DNA of 64,000 nucleotides from Kofleriaceae bacterium (GTDB lineage Bacteria; Myxococcota_A; Polyangia; Haliangiales; Haliangiaceae). Every line of letters starts with the position of its first letter. Within the stretch, counting starts at the first letter, position 1. The DNA lies in contig CBDCCZ010000004.1 of the NCBI GenBank assembly GCA_965215005.1, forward strand, positions 64,001-128,000. Reading direction: 5' to 3'. Positions 14,152-64,000 of this stretch are shown one piece after another. The notes under the pieces are model-generated. The model saw only the letters and a program-made list of their open reading frames with translations. It did no database searches and was not told the origin of the DNA. Made by a program: the position numbers and the translations under genes.

Positions 14152-17100
14152 CTAGCTTTCCTCGCCGGTCGAGGTCGCGGAGTGCAGCTCGTGCGTCGTT
14201 ACATTTTCATCGAGCAGGGTGAGGGCGATAGCCAGTGCTTTCTTCGCCTTGGTGACGGTGTCGTCGTCGCGCCGGATCTTTTGGTAGGCCTTTAGGACCT
14301 GCTCCTGATAGGCCGCGTTCTGCGCTTTGAGCTCTTCGAGATCGGCTTCGAGACGCTCTAGCGTTGCCTCGTGCGCTTCGATCGTTTCGCGGTGGGCATC
14401 GAGCTCGGCGTCGCGGGCGGCGATCAGCTCATTGGCGGTGCTCAGCTCCGCTTGACGCTCTACCAAGCTCGCGTTAGTGGCGTCGAGGGACGTGGCGAGC
14501 CGGTCTCGCTGCGCCGTGAGTGCCTCGGCGGCCTGGCGATGTTGCGCCCGCATCTCGTCGGTCTCGGTCTGGAAATCCAGCCTCATGACGCGCTCGGCTT
14601 CGCCGCGATCCTGCTGTGCTCGCTCGAGCGCTTCCCGCTTATCGTTTTCGGCGTCGGCGAGTGCTTTGGCCTTGTCGTCTTCGGCGGCGGCGAGCTCGCG
14701 TTCGCGGCGCTGTTCGGCGTCGGCGAGTGCTTTGGCCTTATCGTCTTCGGCTGCGGCGAGCTCGCGTTCGCGGCGCTGTTCGGCGTCGGCTAGTGCTTTG
14801 GCCTTGTCGTCTTCGGCGGCGGCGAGCTCGCGTTCGCGGCGCTGTTCGGCGTCTGCGAGTGCTTTGGTCTTATCGTCTTCGGCGGCGGCGAGCTCGCGTT
14901 CGCGGCGCTCTTCGGCGTCGGCGAGCTCACGCTGGCCGTGTTGAATTGCCTCGCGATGCTCGCGGTCGAGCCGCGCCAGCTGGCCCGCGTGCTGATCGGT
15001 GAGCGTCTGCAGCGCCTGCCGATGGCCCGCGGTCAACGTGGCCGTCTCCTCCTCGTGTTGGGCTGCGAGGCTCTCCAGTGCCTCCTGGTGAGCGTCCTGC
15101 TCGGCTGCGCGCGCTCGTGTGGCCTCAGCGAGCGCTTGCTCGCTGCGTTCCTTTAGCGATGCCAGCTGAGCGCGAAGTGCCTCTGCGACCTGGGTGGACT
15201 CCGAGCGCAGCGTGGCGAGTGCTCGTTCGCTTTCTTCGCGCAGCGCGGCACGAGCGGTTTCGTGCTGCTCAGCTTGCGCCGCAGCGTCGCGCGCGTGCTC
15301 TTGCGCAAGCGCCGCGGCAGCTTGCTCACTTTGACTCGCCAGGGCCTCGAGCTGCTGCTCGTGCTCGCTCCGCAGAGCGGCAAGAGCGGTCTGGTTTTGC
15401 CTGCGCAACGACTCGAGCTCGCCCGTATGCTGCTCTTGCAGCGCCGCCTGAGCCTCCGCGCTCGCTCGTTGTTGGTCTTCGAGCGTGCGCGTGTGCGACT
15501 CGTTCAAGCCGTGTAGCGCGCGCTTTTGGGCGGCGTCGGCGTCGGCAAGCGCTTGTTCTTTGGCCTCGGCGGCATCGAGCAGCGCCTGTTCGTGCTCACG
15601 CCGCTGTGCCGCCAGCGCCGAAATCTTGGCCTCTTCGGCCTCGACGAGCGCCTTATCGCGGGTTTCTTCGGCGGCGGCGAGCTCACGACGATGCGCCTCT
15701 TCGACTCGCGCCAGCGCATCGCGATGGCGCTCCTCGACCTCGGCTCGATCCCTCTCTGCCCGCTCCTCCGCTGCGTCGGCCGCGCGCTGGGCCTCGGCTG
15801 CGTGCGCTTGCAGCGCCGCTTCCCGCTGCTCGGTTAGCTCATCGCGCAATGCCGCCAGCTCTTCGAGCTGAACGCGCTCGCGCTCATGACTGGCGTGCTC
15901 ATGCTCTCGCTGCACCGCCTCGAGCGCCGCCGCATTTTTGCTAGCCAGCTCCTCGAGCGCTGAGTCATGCGCTCGCTCGAGCTGCTCGCGCTCTTTTGCG
16001 GCACGAGCGGCGCGCTCGTCCGCGAGTTGCTCGCGCTCCTGCAGCGTCGCCTCGAGCTGAGAACTGGCCTTGCGCGCCCGCTCAAGCTCGCTTTCGAGCG
16101 CTACGCCGCGTCCGCGCAGCTCGTCGAGCTCGCTTTCGAGGTTGGCACTTCGTTCCCGCAGCTCGCCGAGCTCGTCTTCGACCGCGCGCCGCTGGGCCTG
16201 CGACTCGCGCGTTGCCCGCTCGGCTCGATCGACGGTCTCACTGTCTTCTAAAAGCCGCTGCTCGAGCTCGAGGTTCTTGGCATCGAGCGCGGTCTTGGAA
16301 TGCTCTAGCTGCCGCAGGCGGTCGTTGATCTCGAGGATCTGGCGGTCCTTGCCACCCACCTCGTCGCGCAGCTCGAGGATCTCGCGTTCTTTCTTGTTGA
16401 TGAGCTCGCGGAGGTTTAGGAACTCACGCTCGCGCGAGAACGACTTGCCGACTTCGGGTTGCTCGCGCGACTTCTCGAGCTCGGCCTCCAGGCGCTGATT
16501 CTCGCGCTCGAGCGCATGCAGCTTCTGCAAGGTGCGGCGGTCGTGAACCCCCGACTGCTCTTCGTCGGCAGCGCGGGCGACCTCTTCGAGACCGAGATCG
16601 AGCTCGGCAGGCTTGTTGACCGGCGCCTCGACGCGCGCGTTATCCGCGGCCTCGGCGGCGGCGGCGGCGGCCATCAGCGCTGCGGCATTTATGGTGGCCA
16701 CCTGCGTGGGTTTTTCTTCTGGCATCTCGAAGCCGACCGGCTCCGACGCGGTCGCGAAGTCGGCTTCGGAATCGTCCGCGGCCGCTTCAGCAAACGGCGA
16801 TTCGGGCTCGGACTCGGCGCCGACGTCTTCGAAGCCCAGCTCTGCCGCCGATAGCTCTGCCGCCGACAGCTCTGCCGCGCTTTCTTCTTCTTCGGCGGCG
16901 GGATCGTCGGCGAGTGCGGAGAAATCCTCGGTGAGCATCGCAAAGGCGGCGTCGGTTTCAGCGTCGATGCCCTCGTCGATCAACAGGTTCGGAGGCGCGA
17001 CGGTGGTCTTTTCCACCGCTTCTTCGGCAAAGTCACTCAGATCAGCGCCAAGCTCGAGATCATCGGCGTCGATTTCGTCGACCAAGACGTCGTTCTGCAG

Positions 17101-17547
17101 CTCGACATCTCCGAGCTCCATCTCTTCGACATCTACCGGAATCTCGAGATCGTCCACCTCACCGATCTCACCGAGGCCGATCAAGTTATCGAGCTTGCCG
17201 ATGAGCACGTGCGGATTCAGGTCGCGCTTGTCGAAGTATTCGTCGGCGTGGGCGCGTAGCTTCCGATGGCTCTGAAACCCCGAAGACGGCACCGACTGCG
17301 TGGTCAGGACAATAGGAATGTCAGCGGCAATCCCCTTCTTCGCCTTGTTGCACAGCGAATAGCCGAGCTTTTCCGGCTCCTCGACAGCGATGAAGATGAC
17401 CTCCGGTTGAATGTCGTGCACCTGATCGAGCGCCTCTGCGCTTTCTTCGACTGCATAGATCTCGAAGCCGTAAGGAGCGAGTTGCTGGTCGAGGAGGCGA
17501 TGAAATTCTGGATCAGAGTCGATGAGGAGAAGGCGGCGTGAGCCCAT
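14152..17547 (-). CDS. frzS: FrzS-like pseudo-receiver + very long coiled-coil protein
   Basis: Receiver lacks the phosphoacceptor Asp (IFIAVE); [15 protein letters not shown] matches the FrzS signature as recalled; C-terminal [13 protein letters not shown]; downstream of ald-ECF-anti-sigma. Confidence 0.8.
14648..14927. repeat. In-frame 66-bp tandem repeat (22 aa, [22 protein letters not shown]), 4 full copies plus a partial
   Basis: Units start at 14648, 14714, 14780, 14846, 14912. Confidence 0.95.
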
Positions 17548-17677
17548 GAGCCGGCGGTCCTTTCGCTGCGCCAAAAGTCTATCGCGCGCGTCGACAGGGC
17601 CGCAACGACACGAATGTGGGTAGCCGCCGTGCAGGCGCTGCGATGTAGGGCTTCAGCGTTGCGCAGAGGGCAGCAGC

Positions 17678-18490
17678 TCAGCGGGCGCGAAGACGTTCGT
17701 TGACGCGCAGCAATAAGTCTGAGCTGCCTACGAGATCGACGAGTTGGCGCTCATCCATGTCGGAAGAGGTGAACACGTAGCCGATACCGTCTGGCGCCTT
17801 GTAGGCAACCACGCTGAGCCCGAGTTGTCCGTCGATCCACAGCTCGCGGCCATCGATCACCTGTCGACGGCTGCCGCGAAATGCGAGATTCGAAGCATCG
17901 ATTATGTGCGCCTGCACTTCGTGAAGCCGCCCAAAGCTCTCTACTTCATAGAACAGCTGCGCAGCATCGAGACCGCGAAGATGTGACAGCCGAGCACCCT
18001 TGAGACGGATGTCAGAGCTCGAGAACCGCGGCACCTCGATGCTGGGTCGAAAGTGCTCGTGCAGCCACGGAGACACCGCTGCGCCTTGCACTTCGATGGG
18101 CGGCTGCCGCAGGTGTTGTTGCACGGCAGCGTGAGTCACCAAGTCTTCATTGCGACTCGAGCCTGGCGCCACCACGAACACCGCGAGCGCCGCGGCCGCT
18201 GCCACCGTTGCTGCACCCGGCAGCGCCCACGACCGCAGTAGCTGCGCTCGACTCTGGCGATCTTCGGCGTCAAGAGCGCGGAGAAGACGCCGCTCCAATA
18301 GCTCTGGTACCGGCGGTGGCGCTAGATGCATCCGCATCGTGTCGCTAAAGCGGGTCTCGGCGTCGACGCGATCGGCGCAGCTAGCGCAATCCGCCAGATG
18401 CGACTCGAAGTCGATGCGCTCGTGCTCATCGAGCTCGTCGTCTAGATAGCTAAAGAGGAGATTTTCGATCTCTGCGCACTGAATCGACAT
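17678..18490 (-). CDS. Zinc-finger (ZAS) membrane anti-sigma factor
   Basis: HLADCASC (HxxxCxxC), one TM segment, C-terminal domain; 3 bp downstream of the ECF sigma. Confidence 0.9.
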   Translation of the reverse strand: MSIQCAEIENLLFSYLDDELDEHERIDFESHLADCASCADRVDAETRFSDTMRMHLAPPPVPELLERRLLRALDAEDRQSRAQLLRSWALPGAATVAAAAALAVFVVAPGSSRNEDLVTHAAVQQHLRQPPIEVQGAAVSPWLHEHFRPSIEVPRFSSSDIRLKGARLSHLRGLDAAQLFYEVESFGRLHEVQAHIIDASNLAFRGSRRQVIDGRELWIDGQLGLSVVAYKAPDGIGYVFTSSDMDERQLVDLVGSSDLLLRVNERLRAR

Positions 18491-18493
18491 GGA

Positions 18494-19156
18494 TCAACTT
18501 CTCCGCTGGCGCCGATAGGCATCCAGGTCGATGGCGGCTTCGTCGGTCGCAGTATCAGGTGTATCATCGCTCGTAGGTTCCTCCGCGCGAATGATGCCTT
18601 CGGCAACTGCGAACGAGCGAAGCGACTTCTTGAGGAGGCGACGCCCACGATACAGGCGGCTCATGACAGTTCCGACCGGACACTCCATGATCTCGGCGAT
18701 CTCTTTGTACGAGAACCCTTCCACGTCGCAGAGAACCACCGCCAAGCGGAAGTCTGCGGGCAAGGCTTCGAGTGCTCTTGCGACGTCATCCGAGAGCGTG
18801 CGATCGATCAGCTGACGTTCGGGGTCGCGAAGGCTAGCGGCGTCTTCCTGCACCAACACGCCATCGGTCGCGGCCTGCTCGGCGGCGGCCGCGGCAATCA
18901 CCTCTCGACCGCGTTTGCGCTTCTGATAGCTAGTGATGAAGGTGTTCGTCAAGATGCGAAACAGCCACGCTTTGCAGTTCGAGTCCTTCTGAAACGAGTC
19001 CCAGAAGCGGTAGGCGCGCAACATCGCGTCTTGCACCAGATCTTCGGCGTCTCGCGGATTGCGAGTGAGACGATAGGCGGCGCCGTAGAGCGAGTTTAGG
19101 TGCGGCAGCGCGAGCGTCTCGAACTCGGCACGGGCTGGTTTTTTGCGACGTAACAT
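18494..19156 (-). CDS. rpoE1: ECF sigma factor (RpoE1/SigR-like)
   Basis: [43 protein letters not shown]; symbol rests on synteny between ald and frzS. Confidence 0.85.
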
Positions 19157-19171
19157 GGTGACCAAGAGCTG

Positions 19172-19471: not shown

Positions 19472-20578
19472 TCAAGCCGCGAACGGCGTGTGATCGACAC
19501 CGAGCGCTTCGGCGACCGCGCGATGGGTGCAGCCACCGCGATACGTGTTGATGCCGCGCTCGATGGCCGGGTCATCTTTGGCAGCTTTGACCAATCCTTT
19601 GTCGGCCAGTGCGGCGACGTAACGAAGCGTGTCGTTGGTGAGCGCGAAGGTCGAGGTCCGTGGCACCGCGCCAGGCATGTTGGCGACGCAGTAGTGGATC
19701 ACGTCGTGCACGGTGTAGGTCGGGTCTTTGTGCGTGGTGGGGCGACAAGTGGCAACGCAGCCGCCCTGATCCACCGATACGTCGACGACCACTGAGCCGG
19801 CTTCCATCTTGCGAATCATGTCTTCGGTGACCAAATGCGGAGCCCGCGCACCGGTGATCAACACGGCGCCAACCACCAAATCCGCGCTCAGCACTGACTC
19901 TTCGATCGAAACCGGATCCGAGTAGAGGGTCTGAATGCGGCCCTCGTAGATGTCATCGAGGTAGGCCAGGGTGGCGCGGTTGACATCGAGCACCGTGACC
20001 TGCGCGCCGAGCCCGATAGCGACGCGGGCTGCGTTGGCGCCAACCACACCGCCGCCGATGATCGCCACGCGACCACGCCGCACTCCGGGCACGCCGCCGA
20101 GCAGGATGCCCTTGCCGCCGCGCTCACGCTCGAGATACATCGCGCCCGCCTGCACCGCCATGCGTCCAGCGACCGCGCTCATGGGGGTGAGGAGCGGTAG
20201 CTTGCCGGGCGAGGGCTCGATGGTCTCGTAGGCAACGGCATCGACTTTTCGCTTCATGAGCTCATGGCCGAGCTCATGGGCCGCGGCGAGATGCAAATAC
20301 GTAAACAGCAGCTGGCCCTCGCGCATCAGCGGAAACTCGGGTGCGATCGGCTCCTTGACCTTGACGATCATCTCCGCGCGCTTCCAGACTTCTTGTTGCG
20401 ACGCGACGATCGTGGCGCCAGCGCGCTCGAACTCCTCATCTTGAATGGATGAGCCAACGCCAGCGCCGCGCTCGATGAGCACCTCGTGACCGGCACCGGT
20501 CAACACGGCAGCGCCGGCTGGCGTCATGCCGACGCGGAACTCTTGAGTCTTGATCTCTTTCGGTACACCAATACGCAT
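19472..20578 (-). CDS. ald: Alanine dehydrogenase
   Basis: [51 protein letters not shown]. Confidence 0.97.
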
Positions 20579-20588
20579 GGTGCGCGGG

Positions 20589-20618
20589 ACTATCTGATGG
20601 CGCTTCAAGAACTGTCAA
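20589..20618 (-). promoter_or_regulatory. Putative sigma70 promoter of ald, TTGACA-N18-GATAGT
   Basis: Perfect -35; weak -10 ending 10 nt before the ATG. Confidence 0.45.
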
Positions 20619-20640: not shown

Positions 20641-21831
20641 TCAGCTGCGATAGTCAGCGTTGATGGTGACGTAGTCGTGAGACAGGTCGCACGCGAGATA
20701 CTGACCGCTACCAGGGCCCATGTTCAAATCGATGATGATTGGATAGCGCGGCGCGGTCATCACTTTGGCCGCGCTGGCTTCAATATCCGCTGCGACGCGG
20801 GCGCCGCCGGCAACGACTTGAACTTCGCCGATGAAGAGGTCGATCGATGCCGGCCGCACGGCAACGCCGGCGTTGCCAGCGGCGCACAAGATGCGTCCCC
20901 AGTTGGGATCGGCACCGGCGATGGCGGTCTTGACCAGCGGCGAGTTGGCGATGCGGCGCGCGATGGTCTGCGCCGCGCGGTCGCTGGCAGCGCCGCGTAC
21001 GCGGATGGTGACGACGTGGTGCACGCCCTCGCCCTGGCTCATGAGCGCCTGAGCGAGCTCATCGAGAAGCTCGGTGAGGGCGGTGGCAAACGCAGTAAGA
21101 GCCTTGCCGCGCAGCGCGCGGCGATTACCAACGCCGCTGGCGAGCACCACGATCATATCGTTGGTGGAGGTGTCGCCGTCGACGGTGATGGCGTTGAAGG
21201 TCGTGGCGCACGCCGAGCCGAGCGTCTGTTGCAGCGCAGCGCTCGAGACGCGTGCGTCGGTGGTGACGAAGGTGAGCGTGGTGGCCATGTTGGGCGCGAT
21301 CATGCCGGCGCCCTTGGTGCAGCCGATGATCGTGATGGTCTCGCCGTTGATGGTGAGCGAGCGCTGCGCGGTCTTGGCGGCTCGATCGGTCGTGAGAATG
21401 GCCTCTGCAAAGCCGCTGAAGCCATCGCCATGCAGTTGCTTGCAAGCTTGTTCGATGCCGGCGGCGACCGCGTCGATGGGAAGCGGCACGCCGATGACGC
21501 CCGTGGATGCCACGATGACCTCATCAGCCGTGCTGTCGATGAGAGCCGCGGTTTGCCGCGCCATGGTTCGCGCATCGCGCAGCCCGCTGGCGCCGGTGCA
21601 GGCGTTGGCGTTGCCGCTGTTGACGACCACGGCCCGAACGACGCCCGCGGTGCGGGCAAGCGCGGCGCGGGAGACTCGCACCGGTGCTGCCGCCAAGCGA
21701 TTCTTGGTGAACACCGCCGCCGCGGTCGCAGCGCCGTCGCAGGCGATGATGCCTAGATCGGGGAGGCCGCTACTCTTGATGCCGCAAGCGAGGGCGGCGA
21801 AGCGGAAGCCCGCACAGCAAAGCGAAGCCAT
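20641..21831 (-). CDS. argJ: Ornithine acetyltransferase ArgJ
   Basis: NSGNANACTG, KGAGMIAPNMATTL, DGDTSTND, DPNWGRI, INADYRS. Confidence 0.97.
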   Translation of the reverse strand: MASLCCAGFRFAALACGIKSSGLPDLGIIACDGAATAAAVFTKNRLAAAPVRVSRAALARTAGVVRAVVVNSGNANACTGASGLRDARTMARQTAALIDSTADEVIVASTGVIGVPLPIDAVAAGIEQACKQLHGDGFSGFAEAILTTDRAAKTAQRSLTINGETITIIGCTKGAGMIAPNMATTLTFVTTDARVSSAALQQTLGSACATTFNAITVDGDTSTNDMIVVLASGVGNRRALRGKALTAFATALTELLDELAQALMSQGEGVHHVVTIRVRGAASDRAAQTIARRIANSPLVKTAIAGADPNWGRILCAAGNAGVAVRPASIDLFIGEVQVVAGGARVAADIEASAAKVMTAPRYPIIIDLNMGPGSGQYLACDLSHDYVTINADYRS

Positions 21832-21846
21832 GCGTCCACGTATACC

Positions 21847-23061
21847 TCACGAGGCGTCGCGTTGGCGCTGCTTGGCCAGCTGGGGACCTGTGGTCGCGAC
21901 GCGCGCGTAAGCGCCCGACTGCAGGGTCACGCCGGTGACGACGGCGAGCCCGGCTTCGTCGGTGACGCGCAGATGCGTGCGATCGAAAAGCTCGGCGATG
22001 CGCTGCTTGACCAGCGGAATGTTGCAGGTGCCGCCAATGAGGATCACCTCGTCGACCTCGCTTGGTTGCCATCCCGCGTGTTGCAGCTGTGCCGTCGTCT
22101 CGGTTACCGCACGCGCCACCAGCCGACGCCATAGGGGCTCGAGCCACGGGCGATCGACGACCACATCGATGTCCATGCGCGTGCCCCGCTCGACGTACGC
22201 ATCGGGGACGACCAGCTGCGCACTCTCAACGCGCGAGAGCACCCGTTTGATCGACTCGCAGCGCATTCGCAGGCTCGCCCAGCGGATCGCATCGCGGCGC
22301 ATGTCGAACTTGCAGCGGCGAAATACTTGCCCAGCGATGGCGTCGGCGAAGGCGTCGTCGAAGTCATCACCGCCCAAGAACGGATCGCCGCCGGTGGCGA
22401 CCGGGCGGAATACCGTTCCTTCCTGCTCGAGCAGGCTCACGTCGTAAGTGCCGCCGCCAAAGTCGCACACCGCGATGCGGCGATTGGCGGGCTGGGCGTG
22501 CAGTCCAGCGGCGAGCGCGCCGGCGATGGGCTCGGGAACGACTTGAAGAATTTCTACGTGCGCCAAGCGCGCTGCACGTCGCAGTGCGGCGATGTAGCCC
22601 GCATGGCACATCGCCGGAACTCCCAGCACGACAGAACGTACCGCGCAGCCAAAGCGTCGCTCGGCCAGTCCGCGCAGATGCGAGAGGATGGCAGCGGCAA
22701 TCTGCTCAGGGGCAATTTCGCTGCCGTCGATGTCGAGGACCGCGCGACCGCGGGCACCAGCTTTGATGCGATAGCCGACGCCGGCATCGAGACCACGGAC
22801 CTCGGGATCGGTGTTGGAGCGACCGAGCAGCCGCTTGATCGAACCGACGGTCCGCATCGGCTCGGTGGCCATCTTGAGCTGCGCGCTGCGACCAACGATG
22901 GGAGCGCCGCGCTGCGGCACGTGGACGACACTTGGAACGCTGGGATCGCCGTTGTCGAGGACCATCTCGAGGCGCTCACCGAGCATCGTTCCCGCCACCG
23001 AGTAGGTGGTTCCAAGGTCGATGCCCAAGACCACCTCGGTCTTACTCGCTGTTGCGCTCAC
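21847..23061 (-). CDS. Atypical Hsp70-family protein, nucleotide-binding domain only
   Basis: GIDLGTTYS, PEPIAGA, DFGGGTYDVS, LGGDDFD, ILIGG; ends without a substrate-binding domain; GTG 23061 chosen from GGAG and the upstream promoter. Confidence 0.85.
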   Translation of the reverse strand: MSATASKTEVVLGIDLGTTYSVAGTMLGERLEMVLDNGDPSVPSVVHVPQRGAPIVGRSAQLKMATEPMRTVGSIKRLLGRSNTDPEVRGLDAGVGYRIKAGARGRAVLDIDGSEIAPEQIAAAILSHLRGLAERRFGCAVRSVVLGVPAMCHAGYIAALRRAARLAHVEILQVVPEPIAGALAAGLHAQPANRRIAVCDFGGGTYDVSLLEQEGTVFRPVATGGDPFLGGDDFDDAFADAIAGQVFRRCKFDMRRDAIRWASLRMRCESIKRVLSRVESAQLVVPDAYVERGTRMDIDVVVDRPWLEPLWRRLVARAVTETTAQLQHAGWQPSEVDEVILIGGTCNIPLVKQRIAELFDRTHLRVTDEAGLAVVTGVTLQSGAYARVATTGPQLAKQRQRDAS

Positions 23062-23088
23062 GGGTTCCGTCGCTCCACGAACATGCAA

Positions 23089-23113: not shown

Positions 23114-23141
23114 GAGCGCCGTGGCGAATTTTGTCGGCCGG

Positions 23142-53061: not shown

Positions 53062-53072
53062 TCGGAGTGACG

Positions 53073-55271: not shown

Positions 55272-55705
55272 CGCTCACGTGGGAAGCGGTCGACGATGTC
55301 GACGCGCTTGCCCGCGTGCGGGCGTTGCTCGAGGAGCTCGGGGCGGTATTGGTCGCGGAGCGCGATGCTATCGCTAAGCTCGCCTCCGAAACGATCACCG
55401 CGCTCACTTCAGACAAAGAACGCATCTTAGTGGAGCTCGCGGCGATTGCGCAGCGGTTCCCGAGCGAGGTCGAGGACCGCGAGACGGTGACCCGACGCGC
55501 ATCGGAGCCGGTGCGCGCGTTGCGGCAGGACATTGCATTGCAGGGAATGCGAGTGCGGCTGTCGGCGCAGGCCAACGCCGCCCTTTTGCTCGATGCTGTC
55601 GATGCGGTCTCCGGGGTACTTGGCCTCGGCGGTGAAGCGGAGACGTATGATCGTCACGCGCGCAAGCTTTCGCGCAGCCGCAACTTGGGCGGCAAAGCGG
55701 CGTAG
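55268..55705 (+). CDS. flgN: Flagellar chaperone FlgN
   Basis: Helical; AERDAI...KE...NAALL...TYD; between flgM and flgK. Confidence 0.78.
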   Translation: MTLTWEAVDDVDALARVRALLEELGAVLVAERDAIAKLASETITALTSDKERILVELAAIAQRFPSEVEDRETVTRRASEPVRALRQDIALQGMRVRLSAQANAALLLDAVDAVSGVLGLGGEAETYDRHARKLSRSRNLGGKAA

Positions 55706-55723: not shown

Positions 55724-57094
55724 ATGAGTGACTTGCTTCGCCTCTTGGATCTCGGCGCCGGCTCGATCGCTGCCAGCAATGCCGGCATCGCGGCAGCGGG
55801 AAACAACACCGCCAACGTCAACACCGAAGGCTACTCGCGCCAGCGCATCGACATGCGCTCGCAGCTTGCGGCGCCGCTGGTGGGTGGGGTGCTCGCGCAG
55901 GGGCCGATGCGCATGGAGGATGCGCTGCTCGCTGGACGCATGCGCACCAGCGCCGGCGCGCAGTCGATGTCCGAGGCGTTCGCTGAGGCGCTGATGTCGC
56001 TCGAGCAAGTGCTCGCCAGCTCTGGTAGCGATGTGCCTGCGGCGATGACGGAGATGTTTTCGCGCATCGGCGATGCGGCGGCCTCGCCCATGAGCAAACC
56101 AGCGCGCGAAGCGGCCATCGATGCGGCGCGGCAGCTGGCGGTCGCGGTGCGCCGGCAAGCCGCCACGCTCGAGACCGCGCGTCGAGAAGCCGATGCACGG
56201 GTCCGCGATCAAACCCGCGAGGCAAGTGCGTTGGCGGCACAAATCGCCGGGGCCAACAAGGCGCTGGCGCAAAACGCGGACCCGGTGATGATGGATCGCC
56301 GCGACTTGGCCGCACAAAAGCTGGCGGATCTGGTCGGCGGTGCGGCGCGCGTCGATCCTGATGGTCACATGCGCTTCGTGCTCAGCGGCGGCGCCGTGCT
56401 GGTCGACGGTGTTCGCGCTGCGAGCCTCGAAGCCACCTCGGATGCAACGCTGGGAAACTTCGCGCGTATCGAGGTGGTCGATGGTCAAAGTCGGCGCAAC
56501 GTCACCGGCGACCTCGACGGCGGTCGTCTCGCTGGCGAGCTGCGATTTCGCGACGAGACGGCGGTTGGACTGTTGGCCGACACCGACCAGCTCGCCTATG
56601 ACGTCGCCACCAGCACCAACGCCGTCCACGCTGCCAACGCGGCGCTCGATGGCTCGACCGGCCGCAACTTCTTCACCGCGCCCGCCGCCGTAAGCGGAGC
56701 AGCGGCGGCGCTCGAGGTCGATCCGAGCATCGCTGCCAACGCCGATCTGTTGGCGCTCGGCACGCCGGGGGAAGGGCCGGGCTCCAATGGCGGGGGCCTG
56801 GCGCTGCTTGGAGTACGCGATGCGCCGGTTGCTGGCGGTGGCACCACGACGCTCTCGGAGCAGGGCATTCGCGTCATGGCAGGCCTTGGCCGCAGCACTG
56901 CCACCGCCTCCGTCGAGCGCGAGCTTTATACCGCGCAGCGCGACACGCTGGCCGGCTTTCGCGACTCGATGGCCGGCGTGAGCGTGCAAGAAGAGCTGGT
57001 CCGCTTGTCGCAATTTCAACACGCCTCCGAAGCGTCTGCTCGCTTCATTGGCACCGTCGATCAACTGCTTGGCCGCCTCATCGAATCGATCTAA
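55724..57094 (+). CDS. flgK: Hook-associated protein FlgK
   Basis: GNNTANVNTEGYSRQR, GVSVQEE. Confidence 0.94.
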   Translation: MSDLLRLLDLGAGSIAASNAGIAAAGNNTANVNTEGYSRQRIDMRSQLAAPLVGGVLAQGPMRMEDALLAGRMRTSAGAQSMSEAFAEALMSLEQVLASSGSDVPAAMTEMFSRIGDAAASPMSKPAREAAIDAARQLAVAVRRQAATLETARREADARVRDQTREASALAAQIAGANKALAQNADPVMMDRRDLAAQKLADLVGGAARVDPDGHMRFVLSGGAVLVDGVRAASLEATSDATLGNFARIEVVDGQSRRNVTGDLDGGRLAGELRFRDETAVGLLADTDQLAYDVATSTNAVHAANAALDGSTGRNFFTAPAAVSGAAAALEVDPSIAANADLLALGTPGEGPGSNGGGLALLGVRDAPVAGGGTTTLSEQGIRVMAGLGRSTATASVERELYTAQRDTLAGFRDSMAGVSVQEELVRLSQFQHASEASARFIGTVDQLLGRLIESI

Positions 57095-57097: not shown

Positions 57098-57973
57098 ATG
57101 CGCATCACTGAAGCTCGAATGCTCGAAGTTGGTTCCGTGCAGACCATGCGCGCGCAAGAGCGTGTGGCTGCCAAGCAAGCAGAGCTCTCTAGCGGCAAAC
57201 GCGTCGAGCGGCCATCGCAGGATCCCACCGCGTGGGCCGAGGGCCGTCGGGCTCAGGTGCGGTCGCAGGCGAGCAGCCACCGCGGACAACATCTCGCGCG
57301 TTCCAATGAGCGGCTCGCCGACACCGAGCGGGTGCTCGAGAGCCTGGGCGAGGTGACGGCGCGGGCGAGAGAGCTGGCTATCCAAGGAGCCAACGCCACG
57401 CTGGATGCCGACAATCGTGCCGGCATTGCCTCGGAGATTCGCCAGCTGCGCGCTGCGGCGCTCGATGCGGTCAACACGCGCGATGCCGAGGGCGAGTATC
57501 TATTTGCGGGTTCGCGCGGCGATGTCGCGCCGTTCGATGCGGCGGGCGTGTACGTCGGCGACGACCTGCAGCGTGAAGTGGAAAGCGGCGAGGGCGCGAT
57601 GGCAACGGCCACGTTGCCAGGCTCGCGGCTCACGGCGGCTAGCGGTATCGACCTCTTCGCGCGCTTAGACGCGCTGGCCACGGCACTGGAGGCCGGCGAC
57701 GAAGCGGCAATTGCCGTGGGCGTGGGCGACATGGACGAAGCGGTTCGGCAGGTATCGCGCGCGCGCACTGAAACCGGTGAGATGATGCGCGCGTTCGACC
57801 TCGCCGATGATGCTCGCCAAGGGCTGGAGCTCGCGCTTGCCGCCACCGAAGTGCGCAGCCTCGAGACCGATGCCATCGGCGCCGCGACCGAGCTGGCGCA
57901 GGCCATGAACACGCTCGAGGCTTCCCGAGCGGTCACCTCGCGCATCATCGAGATCACCCGGCCGCGACTCTAG
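57098..57973 (+). CDS. flgL: Hook-associated protein FlgL
   Basis: MRIT, LSSGKRVERPSQDP, YLFAG. Confidence 0.93.
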   Translation: MRITEARMLEVGSVQTMRAQERVAAKQAELSSGKRVERPSQDPTAWAEGRRAQVRSQASSHRGQHLARSNERLADTERVLESLGEVTARARELAIQGANATLDADNRAGIASEIRQLRAAALDAVNTRDAEGEYLFAGSRGDVAPFDAAGVYVGDDLQREVESGEGAMATATLPGSRLTAASGIDLFARLDALATALEAGDEAAIAVGVGDMDEAVRQVSRARTETGEMMRAFDLADDARQGLELALAATEVRSLETDAIGAATELAQAMNTLEASRAVTSRIIEITRPRL

Positions 57974-57995
57974 CTTTTTTTTTTGGATTCTCCCC

Positions 57996-58019
57996 TTAAA
58001 GGGCCCCGGAAGCGGGCGA
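57996..58019 (+). promoter_or_regulatory. sigma28-like promoter of flagellin 1, preceded by a T10 tract
   Basis: TTAAAG-N11-CGGGCGA followed by ACCA. Confidence 0.72.
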
Positions 58020-58094
58020 ACCAGGTAAGCGAGCGGGACGCACCACTTAGTCCCAGCCACCTGAACGCAACCCCAACGCTACCGGAGTACGACA

Positions 58095-58964
58095 ATGGCC
58101 CTTTCAATCATCACCAATCTTCCCGCTCTCAGCGCGCAACGCAACCTCGCTTCGACCACCGATGCACTCACGCAGAGCGTTGGTCGCTTGTCCTCGGGCT
58201 TGCGCATCAACCGCGCCGCCGACGACGCAGCGGGCCTTGGCATCAGCGAGAACCTTCGCGCCGACATCCGCAGCATGGTGCAGGCCAAGCGCAACGCCAA
58301 CGATGCCATCAGCCTCACGCAGGTGGCGGAAGGCGCGATGAATGAGATCCAAGGCATCGTCTCGCGCATGCGTGAGCTGGCGGTGCAGTCGGCCAACGGC
58401 ACGCTCGGGACCACCGAGCGCGGCTACATTCAGACCGAGTTCACCAGCCTGCGACAGGAAATCGACCGCATCACGGCGGTCACCGAGTTCAACGGTACCA
58501 AGCTGATCGACGGCACCATGAGCGCCGGCGTCAACTTCCAGGTAGGCATCCAAAACACCTCCAACGATCGCCTCAGCCTCAGCATCGGCGCGCTCAACGC
58601 GCAGTCGCTCGGCAGCACGGGCAGCGTCGCTACCGGCGCCGCGGGGACGGTGATTGCTTCGCAGAGCCTGTCGACGGCAACGGGCGCGCAGGCCGCATTG
58701 GCGGTGTTCGACCTGGCGATCACGCAGCTCTCGACCTCGCGCTCAAAGCTCGGCGCGATGCAGAACCGGTTGTCGGTGACCATGACCAACATCTCGGTCG
58801 CCCACGAGAACCTCTCGGCCGCCGAGTCGCGCATCCGCGACGTCGACGTCGCCTCCGAGTCTGGAAATCTGGCTCGTGCGCAGATCCTTCAGCAGGCGGG
58901 CGTGTCGCTCTTGGGACAAGCCAACCAGCTGCCCCAGGCCGCACTGAGCCTCTTGGGCAACTAG
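58095..58964 (+). CDS. fliC: Flagellin 1 (289 aa)
   Basis: RLSSGLRINRAADDAAGL, RMRELAVQSANGT, LGAMQNRL, SRIRDVD. Confidence 0.98.
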   Translation: MALSIITNLPALSAQRNLASTTDALTQSVGRLSSGLRINRAADDAAGLGISENLRADIRSMVQAKRNANDAISLTQVAEGAMNEIQGIVSRMRELAVQSANGTLGTTERGYIQTEFTSLRQEIDRITAVTEFNGTKLIDGTMSAGVNFQVGIQNTSNDRLSLSIGALNAQSLGSTGSVATGAAGTVIASQSLSTATGAQAALAVFDLAITQLSTSRSKLGAMQNRLSVTMTNISVAHENLSAAESRIRDVDVASESGNLARAQILQQAGVSLLGQANQLPQAALSLLGN

Positions 58965-59158
58965 TTCCACGTCCCCACGCGGCGCGCGGCGCCGAGGCCT
59001 TCGTCTGATCCCGGTAGCGGGCCGCCCAGCTGACCTCGGCTGGGCGCGCCCGCTCTTCGCATTTGTGGGTCCTGCGTACCACGGCAGCGCGATGTAGGTC
59101 GCGCCGGCAGGCTTTCGCACGCGCGCACTCGGTGCCGCGTTTTTTTTTCGCAAGCCCC

Positions 59159-59182
59159 TTCAAGAGCGCCGCGTGCGGGCGA
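59159..59182 (+). promoter_or_regulatory. sigma28-like promoter of flagellin 2, preceded by a T9 tract
   Basis: TTCAAG-N11-CGGGCGA followed by ACCA. Confidence 0.72.
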
Positions 59183-59257
59183 ACCAGGTAAGCGAGCGGG
59201 ACGCACCACTTAGTCCCAGCCACCTGAACGCAACCCCAACGCTACCGGAGTACGACA

Positions 59258-60127
59258 ATGGCCCTTTCAATCATCACCAATCTTCCCGCTCTCAGCGCGC
59301 AACGCAACCTCGCTTCGACCACCGATGCACTCACGCAGAGCGTTGGTCGCTTGTCCTCGGGCTTGCGCATCAACCGCGCCGCCGACGACGCAGCGGGCCT
59401 TGGCATCAGCGAGAACCTTCGCGCCGACATCCGCAGCATGGTGCAGGCCAAGCGCAACGCCAACGATGCCATCAGCCTCACGCAGGTGGCGGAAGGCGCG
59501 ATGAATGAGATCCAAGGCATCGTCTCGCGCATGCGTGAGCTGGCGGTGCAGTCGGCCAACGGCACGCTCGGGACCACCGAGCGCGGCTACATTCAGACCG
59601 AGTTCACCAGCCTGCGACAGGAAATCGACCGCATCACGGCGGTCACCGAGTTCAACGGTACCAAGCTGATCGACGGCACCATGAGCGCCGGCGTCAACTT
59701 CCAGGTAGGCATCCAAAACACCTCCAACGATCGCCTCAGCCTCAGCATCGGCGCGCTCAACGCGCAGTCGCTCGGCAGCACGGGCAGCGTCGCTACCGGC
59801 GCCGCGGGGACGGTGATTGCTTCGCAGAGCCTGTCGACGGCAACGGGCGCGCAGGCCGCATTGGCGGTGTTCGACCTGGCGATCACGCAGCTCTCGACCT
59901 CGCGCTCAAAGCTCGGCGCGATGCAGAACCGGTTGTCGGTGACCATGACCAACATCTCGGTCGCCCACGAGAACCTCTCGGCCGCCGAGTCGCGCATCCG
60001 CGACGTCGACGTCGCCTCCGAGTCTGGAAATCTGGCTCGCGCGCAGATCCTTCAGCAGGCGGGCGTGTCGCTCTTGGGACAAGCCAACCAGCTGCCCCAG
60101 GCCGCATTGAGCCTCTTGGGCAACTAG
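59258..60127 (+). CDS. fliC: Flagellin 2 (protein identical to flagellin 1)
   Basis: Identical translation in the ORF track. Confidence 0.98.
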   Translation: MALSIITNLPALSAQRNLASTTDALTQSVGRLSSGLRINRAADDAAGLGISENLRADIRSMVQAKRNANDAISLTQVAEGAMNEIQGIVSRMRELAVQSANGTLGTTERGYIQTEFTSLRQEIDRITAVTEFNGTKLIDGTMSAGVNFQVGIQNTSNDRLSLSIGALNAQSLGSTGSVATGAAGTVIASQSLSTATGAQAALAVFDLAITQLSTSRSKLGAMQNRLSVTMTNISVAHENLSAAESRIRDVDVASESGNLARAQILQQAGVSLLGQANQLPQAALSLLGN

Positions 60128-60165: not shown

Positions 60166-60314
60166 CAAGCAACTGTCTATAGGACCATTGCTACGAAGTC
60201 TTCGCCCCGGCGTTCTCGCTGGGGCTTTCGACGTTTTCGGTCCGCGCGAGCACGCATTCGTACCGATTCGCGTCTCGTGCAGCGGCGCGTTGATCGATTT
60301 TTTTCGATTGGCTC

Positions 60315-60338
60315 TTCAAGGTCGCGCAAAACGGGCGA
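60315..60338 (+). promoter_or_regulatory. sigma28-like promoter of flagellins 3-4, preceded by a T7 tract
   Basis: TTCAAG-N11-CGGGCGA followed by ACCA. Confidence 0.72.
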
Positions 60339-60408
60339 ACCACGATGCAACGGTGCAACTGCAATCAACAGGCGAATGCAAATTCGTATGCAAGGAGACA
60401 ATCACTAG

Positions 60409-61254
60409 ATGGCAATCTCGATAATCACCAACGTGGCGTCCCTGTCCGCTCAGCGGAACCTGGGACGCGCGCAGGAGATGCAGCAGTCCAGCGTAGGACG
60501 GTTGTCATCCGGTCTGCGTATCAACAAAGCGGCTGATGATGCTGCGGGTCTCGGCATCAGCGAATCGCTGCGCGCCGACATCCGCAGCATCTCGCAAGCC
60601 AAACGCAATGCCAGTGACGGCATCAGCCTCACGCAGGTGGCGGAAGGCGCGATGAATGAGGTGCAGGGCATCGTCTCGCGCATGCGAGAGCTCGCGGTGC
60701 AGTCAGCCAACGGCACGCTCGGCACCACCGAGCGCGGTTACATCCAAACCGAGTTCTCGTCGCTGCGGAGCGAAATCAACCGCATCAGCTCGGTGACCGA
60801 GTTCAACGGCACCAAGCTCATCGATGGCACCATCGCCTCGGGCAGTGGCTCGCAGTTTCAGGTAGGCATTCACAACACCAGCAACGACCGCTTGACGATG
60901 GCGATCGCTACCATCACCGCGAGCGCGCTAGGCAGCGGCACGATGATCGGCTCGCTGAGCCTGTCATCGGCGAGCGGCGCGCAGAGTGCAATCGGCGTCT
61001 TCGACGCCGCTATCAAGCAGCTGTCGACGGCGCGTGCTGGCATCGGTGCGATGCAGAACCGCCTGTCGGTGACGATGAACAACCTCTCCGTGTCGCACGA
61101 GAACCTGTCGGCGGCGGAGTCGCGCGTTCGCGATGTCGATGTCGCGGAAGAAACCAGTGCGCTCACTCGGAGCCAAATTCTCAGCCAGGCGAGTATCTCG
61201 CTGTTGTCGCAAGCCAATCAGCTTCCGGGCGCGGCTCTGTCGCTGCTTGGCTAG
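60409..61254 (+). CDS. fliC: Flagellin 3 (281 aa)
   Basis: Flagellin N- and C-terminal motifs; AGGAG RBS. Confidence 0.98.
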   Translation: MAISIITNVASLSAQRNLGRAQEMQQSSVGRLSSGLRINKAADDAAGLGISESLRADIRSISQAKRNASDGISLTQVAEGAMNEVQGIVSRMRELAVQSANGTLGTTERGYIQTEFSSLRSEINRISSVTEFNGTKLIDGTIASGSGSQFQVGIHNTSNDRLTMAIATITASALGSGTMIGSLSLSSASGAQSAIGVFDAAIKQLSTARAGIGAMQNRLSVTMNNLSVSHENLSAAESRVRDVDVAEETSALTRSQILSQASISLLSQANQLPGAALSLLG

Positions 61255-61296: not shown

Positions 61297-62163
61297 ATGG
61301 GAATTTCAATTGTCACCAACGTCGCCTCGCTCTCGGCGCAGCGGAACTTGGGTCGTGCCCAGGAGATGCAGCAGTCGAGCGTAGGGCGGCTTTCCTCGGG
61401 GTTGCGCATCAACAGGGCCGCGGACGACGCTGCAGGGCTCGGCATCAGCGAGTCGCTACGGGCCGACATTCGCAGTCTGTCGCAGGCCAAGCGCAACGCC
61501 AGCGACGGCATCAGCATGACGCAGGTCGCAGAAGGCGCGATGAACGAGATCCAAGGTATCGTCGGCCGCATGCGCGAGCTGGCGGTGCAGTCGGCCAACG
61601 GTACGCTCGGGACTACCGAGCGCGGCTACATCCAGACCGAATTCAACGCGCTGCGCTCCGAGATCAACCGCATCACCGAGGTGACGGAGTTCAACGGTCG
61701 CAAGTTGATCAATGGCTCCACAGCCGCGGGTGTCGCCTTCCAAGTCGGCATTCAAAACACCACCAACGATCGTCTCACGCTGAGCATTGCGGCGCTGTCA
61801 GCAGGAGCGTTGGGTAGCACTGGCAGTGTCGCTACTGGCGCCGCAACCAACGTGGTGGGCTCTCAAAGCCTTTCCACCGCCAGCAAAGCGCAAAGCGCGA
61901 TCGCTGTTTTTGACTCAGCGATCAAGCAGCTCTCGACCGCTCGTGCCGGCATCGGCGCAATGCAGAACCGGCTCAGCGTCACCCTCAACAACCTATCGGT
62001 GTCGCACGAGAACCTCACGGCCGCGGAGTCGCGCATCCGCGATGTCGACGTCGCCGAAGAAACCAGTGCGCTCACGAGAAGTCAGATCCTCAGTCAGGCG
62101 AGCATCTCGCTCTTGTCGCAGGCAAATCAGTTGCCCGGCTCAGCGCTGGCCCTCCTCGGCTAA
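61297..62163 (+). CDS. fliC: Flagellin 4 (288 aa)
   Basis: Flagellin N- and C-terminal motifs; 42 bp after flagellin 3. Confidence 0.98.
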   Translation: MGISIVTNVASLSAQRNLGRAQEMQQSSVGRLSSGLRINRAADDAAGLGISESLRADIRSLSQAKRNASDGISMTQVAEGAMNEIQGIVGRMRELAVQSANGTLGTTERGYIQTEFNALRSEINRITEVTEFNGRKLINGSTAAGVAFQVGIQNTTNDRLTLSIAALSAGALGSTGSVATGAATNVVGSQSLSTASKAQSAIAVFDSAIKQLSTARAGIGAMQNRLSVTLNNLSVSHENLTAAESRIRDVDVAEETSALTRSQILSQASISLLSQANQLPGSALALLG

Positions 62164-62429: not shown

Positions 62430-63761
62430 ATGCCAGGCATCTCCTTCTCCGGCCTCGCCAGCGGCCTCGACACCGGCTCCATCGTCGATCAGCTCGTCGC
62501 CCTCGAGCGTGCGCCGATTCGCCAGCTCGAGACGCGCAAGCGGCAGACCAGCACGCAAATCTCCACCGTTAGCGACCTGGTTTCCAAGCTTACGGCGCTC
62601 AAGGAGAAGGGCGATGCGCTGAAGGAACCAAGCGACATTCGCGCCTTCAAAGCCACCTCCACCGACGAGGCGGCGGTGAAGGTGGCAAGCTCGGGCTCCG
62701 CACAGCCGGGCGTCTACAACGTGCGCGTGCAGCAGCTCGCACGCGGCGAGACGACCGTGTCCGACGCATTCGCCTCTGACTCGGCGGGTATCGCTGGCAG
62801 CGGCAGTTTCACTCTCACCATGGGCAATGGTGAGGAGGTGAGTATCGATTACGACTCCAGCCACTCGCTGAGTGGGATTGCTACGTTGATTAACGACAGC
62901 GGCGCTCCGGTGGCGGCATCGGTGCTGTTCGATGGCTCGCAATACCAGCTCATGGTGAGCTCGACAGCCACCGGCTCGGACGCGGCCATCAGCTTTGGAG
63001 CCAGCTCCCTTGGTCTCGAGAAGGCTGCCAACGAGAAGGTGGCGGCGCAAAACGCCGTCATCGAGCTCAACGGCATCACCGTGAGTCGCGCGAGCAACAC
63101 CATGTCGGATGTGCTTGCCGGCGTCACACTCACGGTCGCCAAACAAACCGCGGCGACCGACCCACCGGCGGTGGTAACGGTCGCATCTGATGCCGGCGCC
63201 GTGAAGGACAAGCTCCAGAGCTTTGTCGATGCTTACAACGGCGTCGTCGACCTTCTCAATCGCGAGCTCTCGTACACCGGCACCGCGAAAGGTCAAGAGT
63301 CGCTGTTTAGTGACAGCACGTTGCAGGGACTGCAGCGGACTCTGCGCAGCCAGTTCACCGAGCAGATGTCCCACAATGGCGGCTCGATTCGCCTCGGCGA
63401 TATCGGCTTCAAGCTCGACAACGTCGGTCGCATGTCGCTCGACGCAACGAAGCTCGAGGAGGTCCTTGCAAACGACTCCGAAGCTATCGAGAACGCGTTC
63501 TCGGGTGAAAATAGCGACGGCATCACTTACAAGTTCGCCGGACTGGTCGACTCATACACACGCGCGGGTGATGGATTCCTCAGTACCAAAAAGAAGAGCC
63601 TCGAGGGTCGGATCAAAGGGTTCGATAGCCAGATCGAGCGCGTGGAGGTTCGCGCCGGCGACCTTCAAGAGCGCCTCTCGCGGCAATTTTCTGCCCTCGA
63701 GTCGATGATGATCGAGCTTCAGAACCAGGGGAACTACCTCGCATCCATGTTTGCCCGCTGA
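62430..63761 (+). CDS. fliD: Flagellar filament cap FliD
   Basis: GLASGLDTGSIVDQLVALE, VQQLA, SNT..DVLAGVTL, FVDAYN, QFSALE. Confidence 0.96.
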   Translation: MPGISFSGLASGLDTGSIVDQLVALERAPIRQLETRKRQTSTQISTVSDLVSKLTALKEKGDALKEPSDIRAFKATSTDEAAVKVASSGSAQPGVYNVRVQQLARGETTVSDAFASDSAGIAGSGSFTLTMGNGEEVSIDYDSSHSLSGIATLINDSGAPVAASVLFDGSQYQLMVSSTATGSDAAISFGASSLGLEKAANEKVAAQNAVIELNGITVSRASNTMSDVLAGVTLTVAKQTAATDPPAVVTVASDAGAVKDKLQSFVDAYNGVVDLLNRELSYTGTAKGQESLFSDSTLQGLQRTLRSQFTEQMSHNGGSIRLGDIGFKLDNVGRMSLDATKLEEVLANDSEAIENAFSGENSDGITYKFAGLVDSYTRAGDGFLSTKKKSLEGRIKGFDSQIERVEVRAGDLQERLSRQFSALESMMIELQNQGNYLASMFAR

Positions 63762-63772
63762 GGAGATGAGAT

Positions 63773-64000
63773 ATGTACGCAAGAGCTGCAAGAGCCTACA
63801 AGCAAGTCGATCTCGAGTCGGCGCCCAAACCGCAAATCCTCGATCGGCTCTACACTCGCCTACTGCGTGATTTGGACGAAGGGAGCGCCGCCATCGCTGC
63901 GCGTGACGTCAAGGCGCGCGCCGCAGCGTTCGACCACGCGCTGCGTATCGTTACCGAGCTCAAGGCCGCGCTCGACCATGACATTGCCCCCGAGCTGTGC
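63773..64000 (+). CDS. fliS: Flagellin chaperone FliS (truncated by the window end)
   Basis: Translated by hand: MYARAARAYKQVDLESAPKPQILDRLY...ALRIVTELKAALD. Confidence 0.9.
   Translation, partial: MYARAARAYKQVDLESAPKPQILDRLYTRLLRDLDEGSAAIAARDVKARAAAFDHALRIVTELKAALDHDIAPELC

Follow-up and report, generated by a model that had tools for sequence, protein, structure and literature searches.

The 64-kb window analysed here (the whole stretch of DNA under study, 64,000 nucleotides) carries a large flagellar gene cluster next to a locus of myxobacterial type that runs from alanine dehydrogenase (ald) to a gene for a FrzS-like protein. Our results indicate that this cluster is very probably an intact flagellar regulon, resident in the genome of an uncultured, deep-branching Myxococcota lineage standing beside metagenome-assembled genomes (MAGs) labelled Kofleriaceae or Haliangiales. 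It comprises 37 complete flagellar genes and one gene, fliS, that is cut by the window end, all identified by NCBIfam and Pfam profile scans. No frameshift or internal stop was seen in the flagellar genes of the window, in line with an earlier inspection of the letters without database searches (the sequence-only reading), which had counted about 35 intact ones. The window thereby offers a well-resolved and apparently intact flagellar regulon in a Kofleriaceae/Haliangiales-like branch whose cultured members glide, at a locus that keeps the FrzS neighbourhood typical of myxobacteria, and as a reference it may help to survey where motility was lost or gained in Myxococcota and to plan the enrichment of swimming myxobacteria.

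Content and integrity of the flagellar cluster

Among the open reading frame (ORF) calls of the window, 61 were scanned against NCBIfam and 29 + 7 against Pfam. The flagellar genes recognized in this way all lie on the + strand, from 29.5 kb to the window end, in the order flgBC-fliEFGHIJK-flgDE-fliMNOPQR-flhBAFG-fliA-flgFGAHIJMNKL, followed by four flagellin genes, fliD and the start of fliS. The MS ring and the C ring are represented by fliF (30841-32478; TIGR00206, 213.4 bits), fliG (32448-33488; TIGR00207, E 2.7e-64), a divergent fliM (39854-40834; TIGR01397, E 9.2e-13, below cut-off, with a FliMN_C domain) and fliN (40831-41157; TIGR02480, E 2.8e-23). The export apparatus is encoded by flhA (45365-47437; TIGR01398, 809.7 bits), flhB (44304-45368; TIGR00328, E 2.8e-87), fliO (41154-42521; PF04347), fliP (42518-43303; TIGR01103, 236.8 bits), fliQ (43304-43585; PF01313, E 4.4e-26) and fliR (43582-44307; TIGR01400, E 1.3e-33), together with the genes of the ATPase complex, fliH (33485-34159; PF02108, E 5.5e-23), fliI for the export ATPase (34156-35469; TIGR03496, E 4.6e-145) and fliJ (35466-35903), the last named by its position between fliI and fliK, with 4-base overlaps, and by a weak full-length match to PF02050 (E 0.078). 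The scores of FlhA, FliP and the FliI subfamily model exceed the curated cut-offs.

The rod genes are flgB (29470-30045; matched by TIGR01396/NF004654 from residue 84, with ATG 29698 as the probable start), flgC (30060-30491; TIGR01395, 171.9 bits), flgF (50118-50837; TIGR02490, 196.6 bits), flgG (50853-51641; TIGR02488, 355.7 bits) and fliE (30500-30823; TIGR00205, 79.1 bits), and the P and L rings are accounted for by flgI (P ring; 53049-54176; NF003676, 409.3 bits), flgH (L ring; 52372-53061; NF009336, E 1.3e-46) and flgA (51638-52375; TIGR03170, 55 bits, with a ChapFlgA domain). Hook and ruler are encoded by flgD (37754-38407; NF005176, E 4.3e-37), flgE (hook; 38328-39713; NF004238, E 4.8e-99) and the hook-length control gene fliK (35900-37741; Flg_hook PF02120, E 9.3e-6, a weak match), the hook-filament junction by flgK (55724-57094; TIGR02492, 201.1 bits) and flgL (57098-57973; TIGR02550, 166.9 bits), and cap and chaperones by fliD for the filament cap (62430-63761; NF005955, E 2.3e-63), fliS (63773-64000, first 76 codons; PF02561, E 3.8e-11) and flgN (55268-55705; PF05130, E 1.2e-6, just below cut-off). 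The rod-cap gene flgJ (54176-54952; PF10135, PF01551) encodes a rod-binding domain fused to an M23 peptidase. The cluster also includes, as the sequence-only reading had proposed, the FlhF/FlhG and FliA/FlgM pairs: the row flhA-flhF-flhG-fliA continues from flhA with a GTPase of the signal recognition particle type (flhF, 47434-48507; TIGR03499, 205.5 bits, above cut-off), a MinD/ParA-type ATPase named flhG by its position after flhF (48504-49385; MinD-family matches below cut-off, ParA/CbiA domains) and sigma-28 (fliA, 49382-50107; NF005413, 233.3 bits), and the anti-sigma-28 gene flgM lies further downstream (54969-55271; TIGR03824, E 2.4e-7; PF04316).

Taken as a set, these matches show that the cluster encodes a standard Gram-negative flagellum with P and L rings. 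All the axial parts that injectisomes lack, namely rod, P/L rings, hook, flagellin and the cap FliD, were found, and the NCBIfam scan of 61 ORFs gave no match to a secretin or needle family. A non-flagellar type III secretion system, as in Myxococcus xanthus, is ruled out by the flagellin, hook, rod and P/L-ring genes. The FlgJ-M23 fusion, the long FliO and the repeats in FliK fit flagella of the former delta-proteobacteria.

The organization of the cluster supports the view that it is intact and functional-looking, as judged from the DNA. Consecutive genes from flgB to flgL share 4-base start/stop overlaps at 16 of 31 junctions, which bears out the frequent translational coupling noted earlier, and the largest gap in this run is 140 nt, between flgE and fliM. 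Profile alignments extend essentially from end to end; for example, FlhA aligns over residues 13-680 to positions 2-674 of a profile of 678 (809.7 bits), and FlgG over residues 4-261 to positions 1-258 of 259.

The four flagellin genes, flagellin 1 (fliC1, 58095-58964; NF009444, E 1.7e-81), flagellin 2 (fliC2, 59258-60127), flagellin 3 (fliC3, 60409-61254; NF009448, E 2.2e-82) and flagellin 4 (61297-62163; NF009444, E 1.3e-80), the last beginning 42 nt after flagellin 3, encode three distinct proteins. Flagellins 1 and 2 are identical in protein sequence and belong to a 1163-nt tandem duplication within 57992-60127 that spans promoter region and coding sequence; their coding sequences differ at two synonymous bases (58877 and 58944), and the flanks diverge just outside. 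Because of these synonymous differences and diverged flanks, the pair is best explained by a real recent duplication or conversion and not by an assembly echo. The other flagellin pairs are 75-86% identical, and the ratio of nonsynonymous to synonymous substitution rates (dN/dS) is 0.09-0.26 in five of the six pairs, the sixth being the protein-identical one. The flagellin paralogues are under purifying selection, and the recent duplicate has been kept.

Three of the proteins have features of their own. The N-terminus of FliM, LDPQELEAIQQAI, presumably resembles a CheY-binding peptide. Within fliK, positions 36291-36735 hold about ten 42-nt (14-aa) tandem repeats with units of the form AAAPSEA(A/S)(R/K/Q)(S/A)QG(T/A)M, and one may speculate that repeat number could tune ruler length. 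FliO is 455 aa long, also in the database's own gene call, and consists of a signal-peptide-like start, a beta-rich N-terminal domain, one transmembrane helix, the FliO core and an Ala/Pro-rich tail of about 170 aa; a homologue search returned only two non-self matches. The N-terminal domain contains no Pfam domain, and its single-sequence fold is of low confidence (mean predicted local distance difference test score 52.6). It recalls the FliO proteins with AMIN or LysM domains that PMC12248157, in its available text, describes for Myxococcota, a likeness that neither Pfam nor the low-confidence fold confirmed.

Host placement and the argJ junction

The host was placed with ArgJ, encoded on the - strand at 20641-21831 (NF003802, 460.7 bits). 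A search of genome contigs with 10-kb flanks was made with this protein, and the best 80 of 532 confirmed relatives were taken. The eight relatives of highest identity (57-60%) all come from MAGs that carry the label Kofleriaceae, Haliangiales or Myxococcales. When the 80 sequences and the window were combined in a maximum-likelihood tree, the latter fell into a 13-row clade with 98% support in the SH-like approximate likelihood ratio test (SH-aLRT), made up of 11 Myxococcota-labelled rows, one row labelled 'uncultured delta proteobacterium' (L014) and the window itself, and within this clade the window ArgJ is a deep branch beside the Kofleriaceae/Haliangiales group. Gene order recurs as well, since in the related loci ArgJ is followed by Ald in eight cases (67-76% identical), by the ECF (extracytoplasmic function) sigma factor in seven and by the anti-sigma factor in six, and a homologue of the FrzS-like receiver comes next in six loci, at 46-56% identity in L003, L010, L011 and L039 and at 28-31% in L009 and L014. 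These data support a host within Myxococcota and agree with the myxobacterial chromosome proposed by the sequence-only reading.

The flagellar side of the window points to the same taxa. Among the best 120 FlhA rows the nearest non-self sequence is 74% identical and the other 118 are at 66-71%, and the eight named rows of the 119 non-self ones comprise four Kofleriaceae, two Myxococcales, one Deltaproteobacteria and one Proteobacteria. Between argJ and the flagellar side lies a gene for an Hsp70-family protein with the nucleotide-binding domain only (21847-23196, - strand; PF00012, E 3.3e-75). Its relatives are about 400 aa long, so its true start is probably some 50 codons inside the called ORF; nine of the 120 rows listed are named, three as Kofleriaceae, two as Myxococcales, three as Deltaproteobacteria and one as Pseudomonadota. 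The window's own Hsp70-like protein is not among its listed homologues; the window FlhA and FliO are present in theirs.

Several results weigh against a resident and intact regulon in this lineage, and they are considered here with the explanations they would favour. Host placement at the phylum level uses a single marker, ArgJ, and the organism labels are those given to MAGs by their submitters. In 10 of the 12 other loci of the Myxococcota clade (L002, L003, L005, L007, L009, L010, L011, L014, L015 and L039) secA lies directly upstream of argJ; the SecA of L010 was identified at 1186.7 bits, and the other clade copies are 54-76% identical to it. Overall, secA-argJ was found in 15 of 80 loci, including one further locus besides those of Bradymonadia and Binatia. 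In the window, which lacks secA, the Hsp70-like gene stands next to argJ, and the break with the old gene order falls precisely at the start of argJ (21831-21847). Within 10 kb of argJ, none of the 80 loci shows flagellar genes, the Hsp70-like gene or any of the regulators. The adjacency of argJ and flagellar genes is unique among the genomes examined, and the position of the cluster is not conserved among relatives. With the flagellar block in the place normally taken by secA, a rearrangement or insertion in this lineage follows, or, less likely, a mis-join.

These observations would suit a horizontally acquired island from a donor outside Myxococcota, in which secA and argJ were separated by the insertion of the flagellar block, its regulators and the Hsp70-like gene: the gene order shared with relatives ends precisely 5' of argJ, and no relative among the 80 loci has flagellar genes near it. 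We nevertheless consider such an island improbable. No integrase or transposase family matched the 61 ORFs scanned with NCBIfam, the window contains no tRNA and no match to Rfam families, rRNA included, and there are no long repeats at the junction (21-30 kb), so that none of the usual hallmarks of a genomic island, whether integrase or transposase, tRNA target, flanking repeats or deviant composition, was found in the window. Mean GC content at third codon positions (GC3) is 0.749 in the 17 left genes from nuoG to the Hsp70-like gene, 0.794 in the four regulator genes and 0.784 in the 37 flagellar genes; relative synonymous codon usage correlates at 0.98 across these gene blocks, making codon usage on the flagellar side indistinguishable from that on the housekeeping side, and window GC runs from 0.60 to 0.69 without a step. 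The absence of mobile genes and of a compositional break, already remarked on from the letters, thus holds in the scans. The named closest relatives of FlhA (66-74%) and of the Hsp70-like protein come from the same Myxococcota taxa as those of ArgJ, and any transfer would therefore be old and predate the clade, or the block moved within the genome. Moreover, two of the 12 clade loci, L001 and L004, likewise lack secA upstream of argJ, which indicates that this position is not fixed. On the favoured reading of a resident regulon, the cluster would have resided in the lineage for so long that its composition agrees with that of the remaining chromosome, and its placement next to argJ would be a lineage-specific rearrangement.

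A second explanation for the same adjacency is an artefact of assembly or binning, in which housekeeping and flagellar pieces were joined between 21.8 and 29.5 kb. The source is of metagenome type, and the argJ/Hsp70-like/flagellar arrangement recurs in 0 of 80 loci, which speaks for a false join; we nevertheless regard this as very improbable indeed. The Hsp70-like stop codon and the argJ start lie 15 nt apart on the same strand in an operon-like manner, the 21-30 kb region offers no repeat that could mislead an assembler, and base composition and codon usage stay even throughout. Named relatives in Kofleriaceae or Myxococcales MAGs were found for genes on both sides of the junction and at the junction itself, the window FlhA is recorded in the database on a contig of 381,114 bases, and the main conclusion would stand even if two related strains had been falsely joined.

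Further points against an intact, working regulon come from the cluster itself. FliM, FliJ, FliK, FliO, FlgM and FlgN are weak family matches, and no motA/motB, fliL or chemotaxis (che) gene appears in the 64-kb gene map, in which the window ends inside fliS. The sequence-only reading had called the system apparently complete; the parts it listed are present, and the word complete was too strong for a window with no motA/motB, fliL or che genes. As regards regulation, the three-tier scheme described below is inferred: the sigma-54 consensus TGGCAC-N5-TTGC occurs 4 times against 5.6 expected from shuffles at up to one mismatch and 76 times against 76.0 at up to two; the textbook sigma-28 pattern TAAA-N14-16-GCCGATA has 0 matches; and the flagellin motif CTTMAAG-N12-GGGCGAAC was derived from the same three sites at which it is reported, two of them recent duplicates, so that its count is descriptive.

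The lack of stator genes in the window and the divergent FliM could mean that the system is a relic, or has been repurposed for secretion or adhesion and no longer drives swimming. The cultured relatives glide. In Anaeromyxobacter dehalogenans 2CP-C, according to the available text of Thomas et al. (2008, PMC2330069), swimming was 'not commonly observed' despite a full flagellar cluster. Yet loss of swimming seems quite improbable here, given 37 complete genes that are intact with full-length profile matches, flagellin paralogues under purifying selection with a recent duplicate kept, and genes for filament, cap, hook junction and P/L rings that would be superfluous in a system used for secretion alone. 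Little can be read from the absence of motAB in a window that ends inside the cluster, on a contig that runs far beyond it.

Elsewhere in the ArgJ tree, three contigs are oddly placed: one labelled Nitrosopumilus sp. (an archaeon; L055) joins Rubripirellula with 97% support, a contig labelled 'Actinomycetes' (L064) lies at the base of a Planctomycetota clade, and a 'Symbiobacteriaceae' contig (L043) pairs with a Bdellovibrionota one. These are likely mis-binned contigs or transfers.

Regulatory genes and a possible control scheme

The region between the Hsp70-like gene and flgB encodes a set of signalling proteins, comprising an HDOD-domain protein (24130-25056, + strand; PF08668, E 3.1e-56), a hybrid receiver-histidine kinase (25077-26669, - strand; Response_reg, HATPase_c), a PAS histidine kinase (26558-27988, - strand; PAS_9, HisKA, HATPase_c) and, divergent from the latter, a sigma-54 enhancer-binding response regulator of REC-AAA+-HTH architecture (27898-29457, + strand; PF00158, E 7.1e-70; also matched by NtrC/AtoC/FlbD/FlgR models), whose true start is probably downstream of the first start of the ORF. 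Before them lie two small ORFs (23236-24133, + strand) without a Pfam family; read from the sequence, one has a signal-peptide-like start and an aromatic C-terminus (...GFSAY), and the other a lipobox-like start, LVGC. Given their position, they might encode proteins of the envelope that are regulated together with the flagellum.

A three-tier hierarchy of sigma-54, FlhF/FlhG and sigma-28 is known from polar flagellates such as Vibrio, Pseudomonas and Campylobacter. As in these organisms, the sigma-54 activator of the window adjoins the early genes together with a partner kinase, the flhF-flhG-fliA row follows flhA, flgM is present, and the flagellins stand behind a separate promoter-like motif. 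Unlike them, the window has no master regulator of the FlrA/FleQ type, its regulatory module includes two kinases and an HDOD protein, and its flagellin motif departs from the textbook sigma-28 consensus. In a scheme of this kind, a two-component sigma-54 activator from the adjacent upstream gene would switch on the early flagellar genes, FlhF and FlhG would set the place and number of flagella, probably at the pole, and FlgM would restrain FliA until the hook-basal body is finished, after which released FliA would turn on the flagellin genes through their common promoter-like motif; the stator and chemotaxis genes would lie elsewhere in the genome.

The candidate promoter sites are few. A sigma-54-like TGGCCC-N5-TTGC lies at 29670-29684 before flgB, in a window where the motif is not enriched, and a -24/-12-like CGGCAC-N5-TTGC with one mismatch lies at 23208-23222 before the small ORFs, not above chance; both may be taken as leads only. 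The putative sigma-28-like motif of the flagellin genes, CTTMAAG-N12-GGGCGAAC, is found on the + strand at 57995-58021 upstream of fliC1, with exact copies at 59158-59184 (fliC2) and 60314-60340 (fliC3), each preceded by a T-run, and as a FliA promoter it is likewise a lead. A scan of 57-64 kb for terminators and sigma-70 promoters gave nothing above shuffles.

The FrzS-like locus, precedents and the left flank

On the - strand, to the left of argJ, lie alanine dehydrogenase (19472-20608; TIGR00518, 529.8 bits, above cut-off), an ECF sigma factor (18494-19165; TIGR02947, E 1.7e-55) at the position that corresponds to rpoE1, a zinc-finger (zf-HC2) anti-sigma factor (17678-18490; NF052375, E 2.4e-14; PF13490) and a FrzS-like protein of 1140 aa as called (14152-17574). 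The ald-rpoE1-frzS type of neighbourhood proposed from the sequence alone was thus found as described, ArgJ included. This arrangement resembles the M. xanthus gene order aldA-rpoE1-orf5-frzS: the window has Ald, the ECF sigma factor and the anti-sigma factor, then a receiver protein with a putative coiled coil.

The FrzS-like protein begins with a pseudo-receiver, continues with a long acidic linker and a putative coiled-coil region in which heptad-like stretches rich in E/A/R/L can be read by eye, and carries 22-aa tandem repeats. With residues 10-140, the six best PDB matches are all chains with the M. xanthus FrzS receiver (2gkg, E 2.9e-12), and the next family is YycF (E 8.8e-9). In the alignment to the FrzS receiver, the site of the phospho-accepting Asp reads AVEE in the window protein and AVDL in FrzS, and the stretch HRKL(K/R)AHADEY is common to both. 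The window receiver thus lacks the phospho-accepting Asp, as does FrzS (structures 2gkg/2i6f), for which this absence is described in the available text of PMC1974792. Differences from the M. xanthus FrzS locus are the length of 1140 aa, the long acidic linker, the repeats and the lack of frz chemosensory genes in the window. No frz chemosensory, pil, mglA or sgmX gene was found in the 64 kb. On the basis of these likenesses, naming the 1140-aa protein after frzS appears reasonable. The repeats are five 66-nt (22-aa) tandem units at 14581-14976, near the C-terminal part.

Flagella in this phylum are not new. According to the accessible text of Thomas et al. (2008, PMC2330069), A. dehalogenans 2CP-C has a 55.7-kb flagellar cluster with motAB, fliC and >30 other genes, swimming was seen in Anaeromyxobacter strain K, and the closest gene order was that of Desulfuromonas acetoxidans, from which the cluster was argued to be older than the split between myxobacteria and Desulfuromonadales. 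The window resembles Anaeromyxobacter, as described there, in carrying one large cluster of >30 flagellar genes in a myxobacterium, and Anaeromyxobacter also keeps frz, pilus and gliding genes. It differs in that the Anaeromyxobacter cluster includes motAB and embedded chemotaxis genes, whereas the 34.5 kb seen in the window have neither motAB nor che, and in that fliJ, flgN, flgA, flgJ and fliK, reported missing in the 2008 Anaeromyxobacter annotation, all have candidates in the window. By published description, the hosts differ too, that of the window being a Kofleriaceae/Haliangiales-like branch with about 65% GC. Since a myxobacterial flagellar cluster, swimming and the same argument for ancestral retention were published in that paper, the novelty that the sequence-only reading had considered falls away, and nothing is overturned: reports of flagellar genes in the phylum, and of one strain that swims, go back to 2008 (PMC2330069).

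More recent reports, as far as their available text goes, extend this picture to uncultured members. Flagellar assembly genes are listed for novel Myxococcota MAGs in a 2021 preprint on Zodletone spring (10.1101/2021.07.06.451402), and a 2025 seamount study reports high expression of flagellum and pilus genes, with flagellin and pilin genes among the most highly expressed, for Myxococcota and Bdellovibrionota pooled (PMC11937823). Like the window, these MAGs encode flagellar assembly, along with type IV pili; unlike it, they are described in gene-content tables without the anatomy of a locus. In the accessible text of a 2026 preprint on the distribution of flagellar motility over GTDB, Myxococcota are among the 'motile phyla', and public MAGs of Kofleriaceae and Myxococcales already contain annotated FlhA proteins. 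An explicit account of flagellar loci in the Kofleriaceae/Haliangiales branch was not found in open-access text, and the available text of PMC11821767, PMC10576062, PMC12316311, PMC13043013 and PMC12700997 holds nothing on flagellar genes in Myxococcota. What our analysis adds is the host placement, the same taxonomic affinity and codon usage across the junction, and the replacement of a widely conserved secA-argJ adjacency by the flagellar block.

The swimming lineage proposed by the sequence-only reading is suggested by gene content, and the ancestral retention that it proposed may be weighed against the non-conserved position of the cluster. From an evolutionary point of view, FlhA proteins at 66-74% identity to that of the window form more than 100 distinct clusters, and the organism labels that these carry are all Myxococcota or a parent bin name. 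As a tentative suggestion, to which we would give somewhat less than an even chance, flagella may be the rule in uncultured Kofleriaceae/Haliangiales-like Myxococcota, passed down vertically from an ancestor of the phylum that swam, and the view in textbooks of a group without flagella may reflect which lineages were cultured. On this suggestion, such cells would combine a flagellum placed by FlhF/FlhG with a pilus apparatus of FrzS-type pole switching, which would suit them to studies of how the poles are shared between two polarity machineries.

The left 21.8 kb of the window consist of housekeeping and signalling genes, including nuoG (cut by the window start), nuoD, nuoC and nuoB as well as a macro-domain protein, a CarD-family regulator, an EamA transporter and HflX. 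Two further signalling genes are found on this side, one for a 538-aa MshEN-receiver-TPR protein (6036-7652) and one for a receiver-HD-GYP protein (12656-14083). The MshEN domain binds cyclic-di-GMP in other proteins, and with the MshEN and HDOD proteins the HD-GYP protein forms a group of cyclic-di-GMP signalling genes that surround the motility loci. An isoaspartate methyltransferase ORF at 8117-10230 is 526 aa as called, with its domain starting at residue 303, and a 389-aa ORF without a family lies over it on the opposite strand at 9061-10230.

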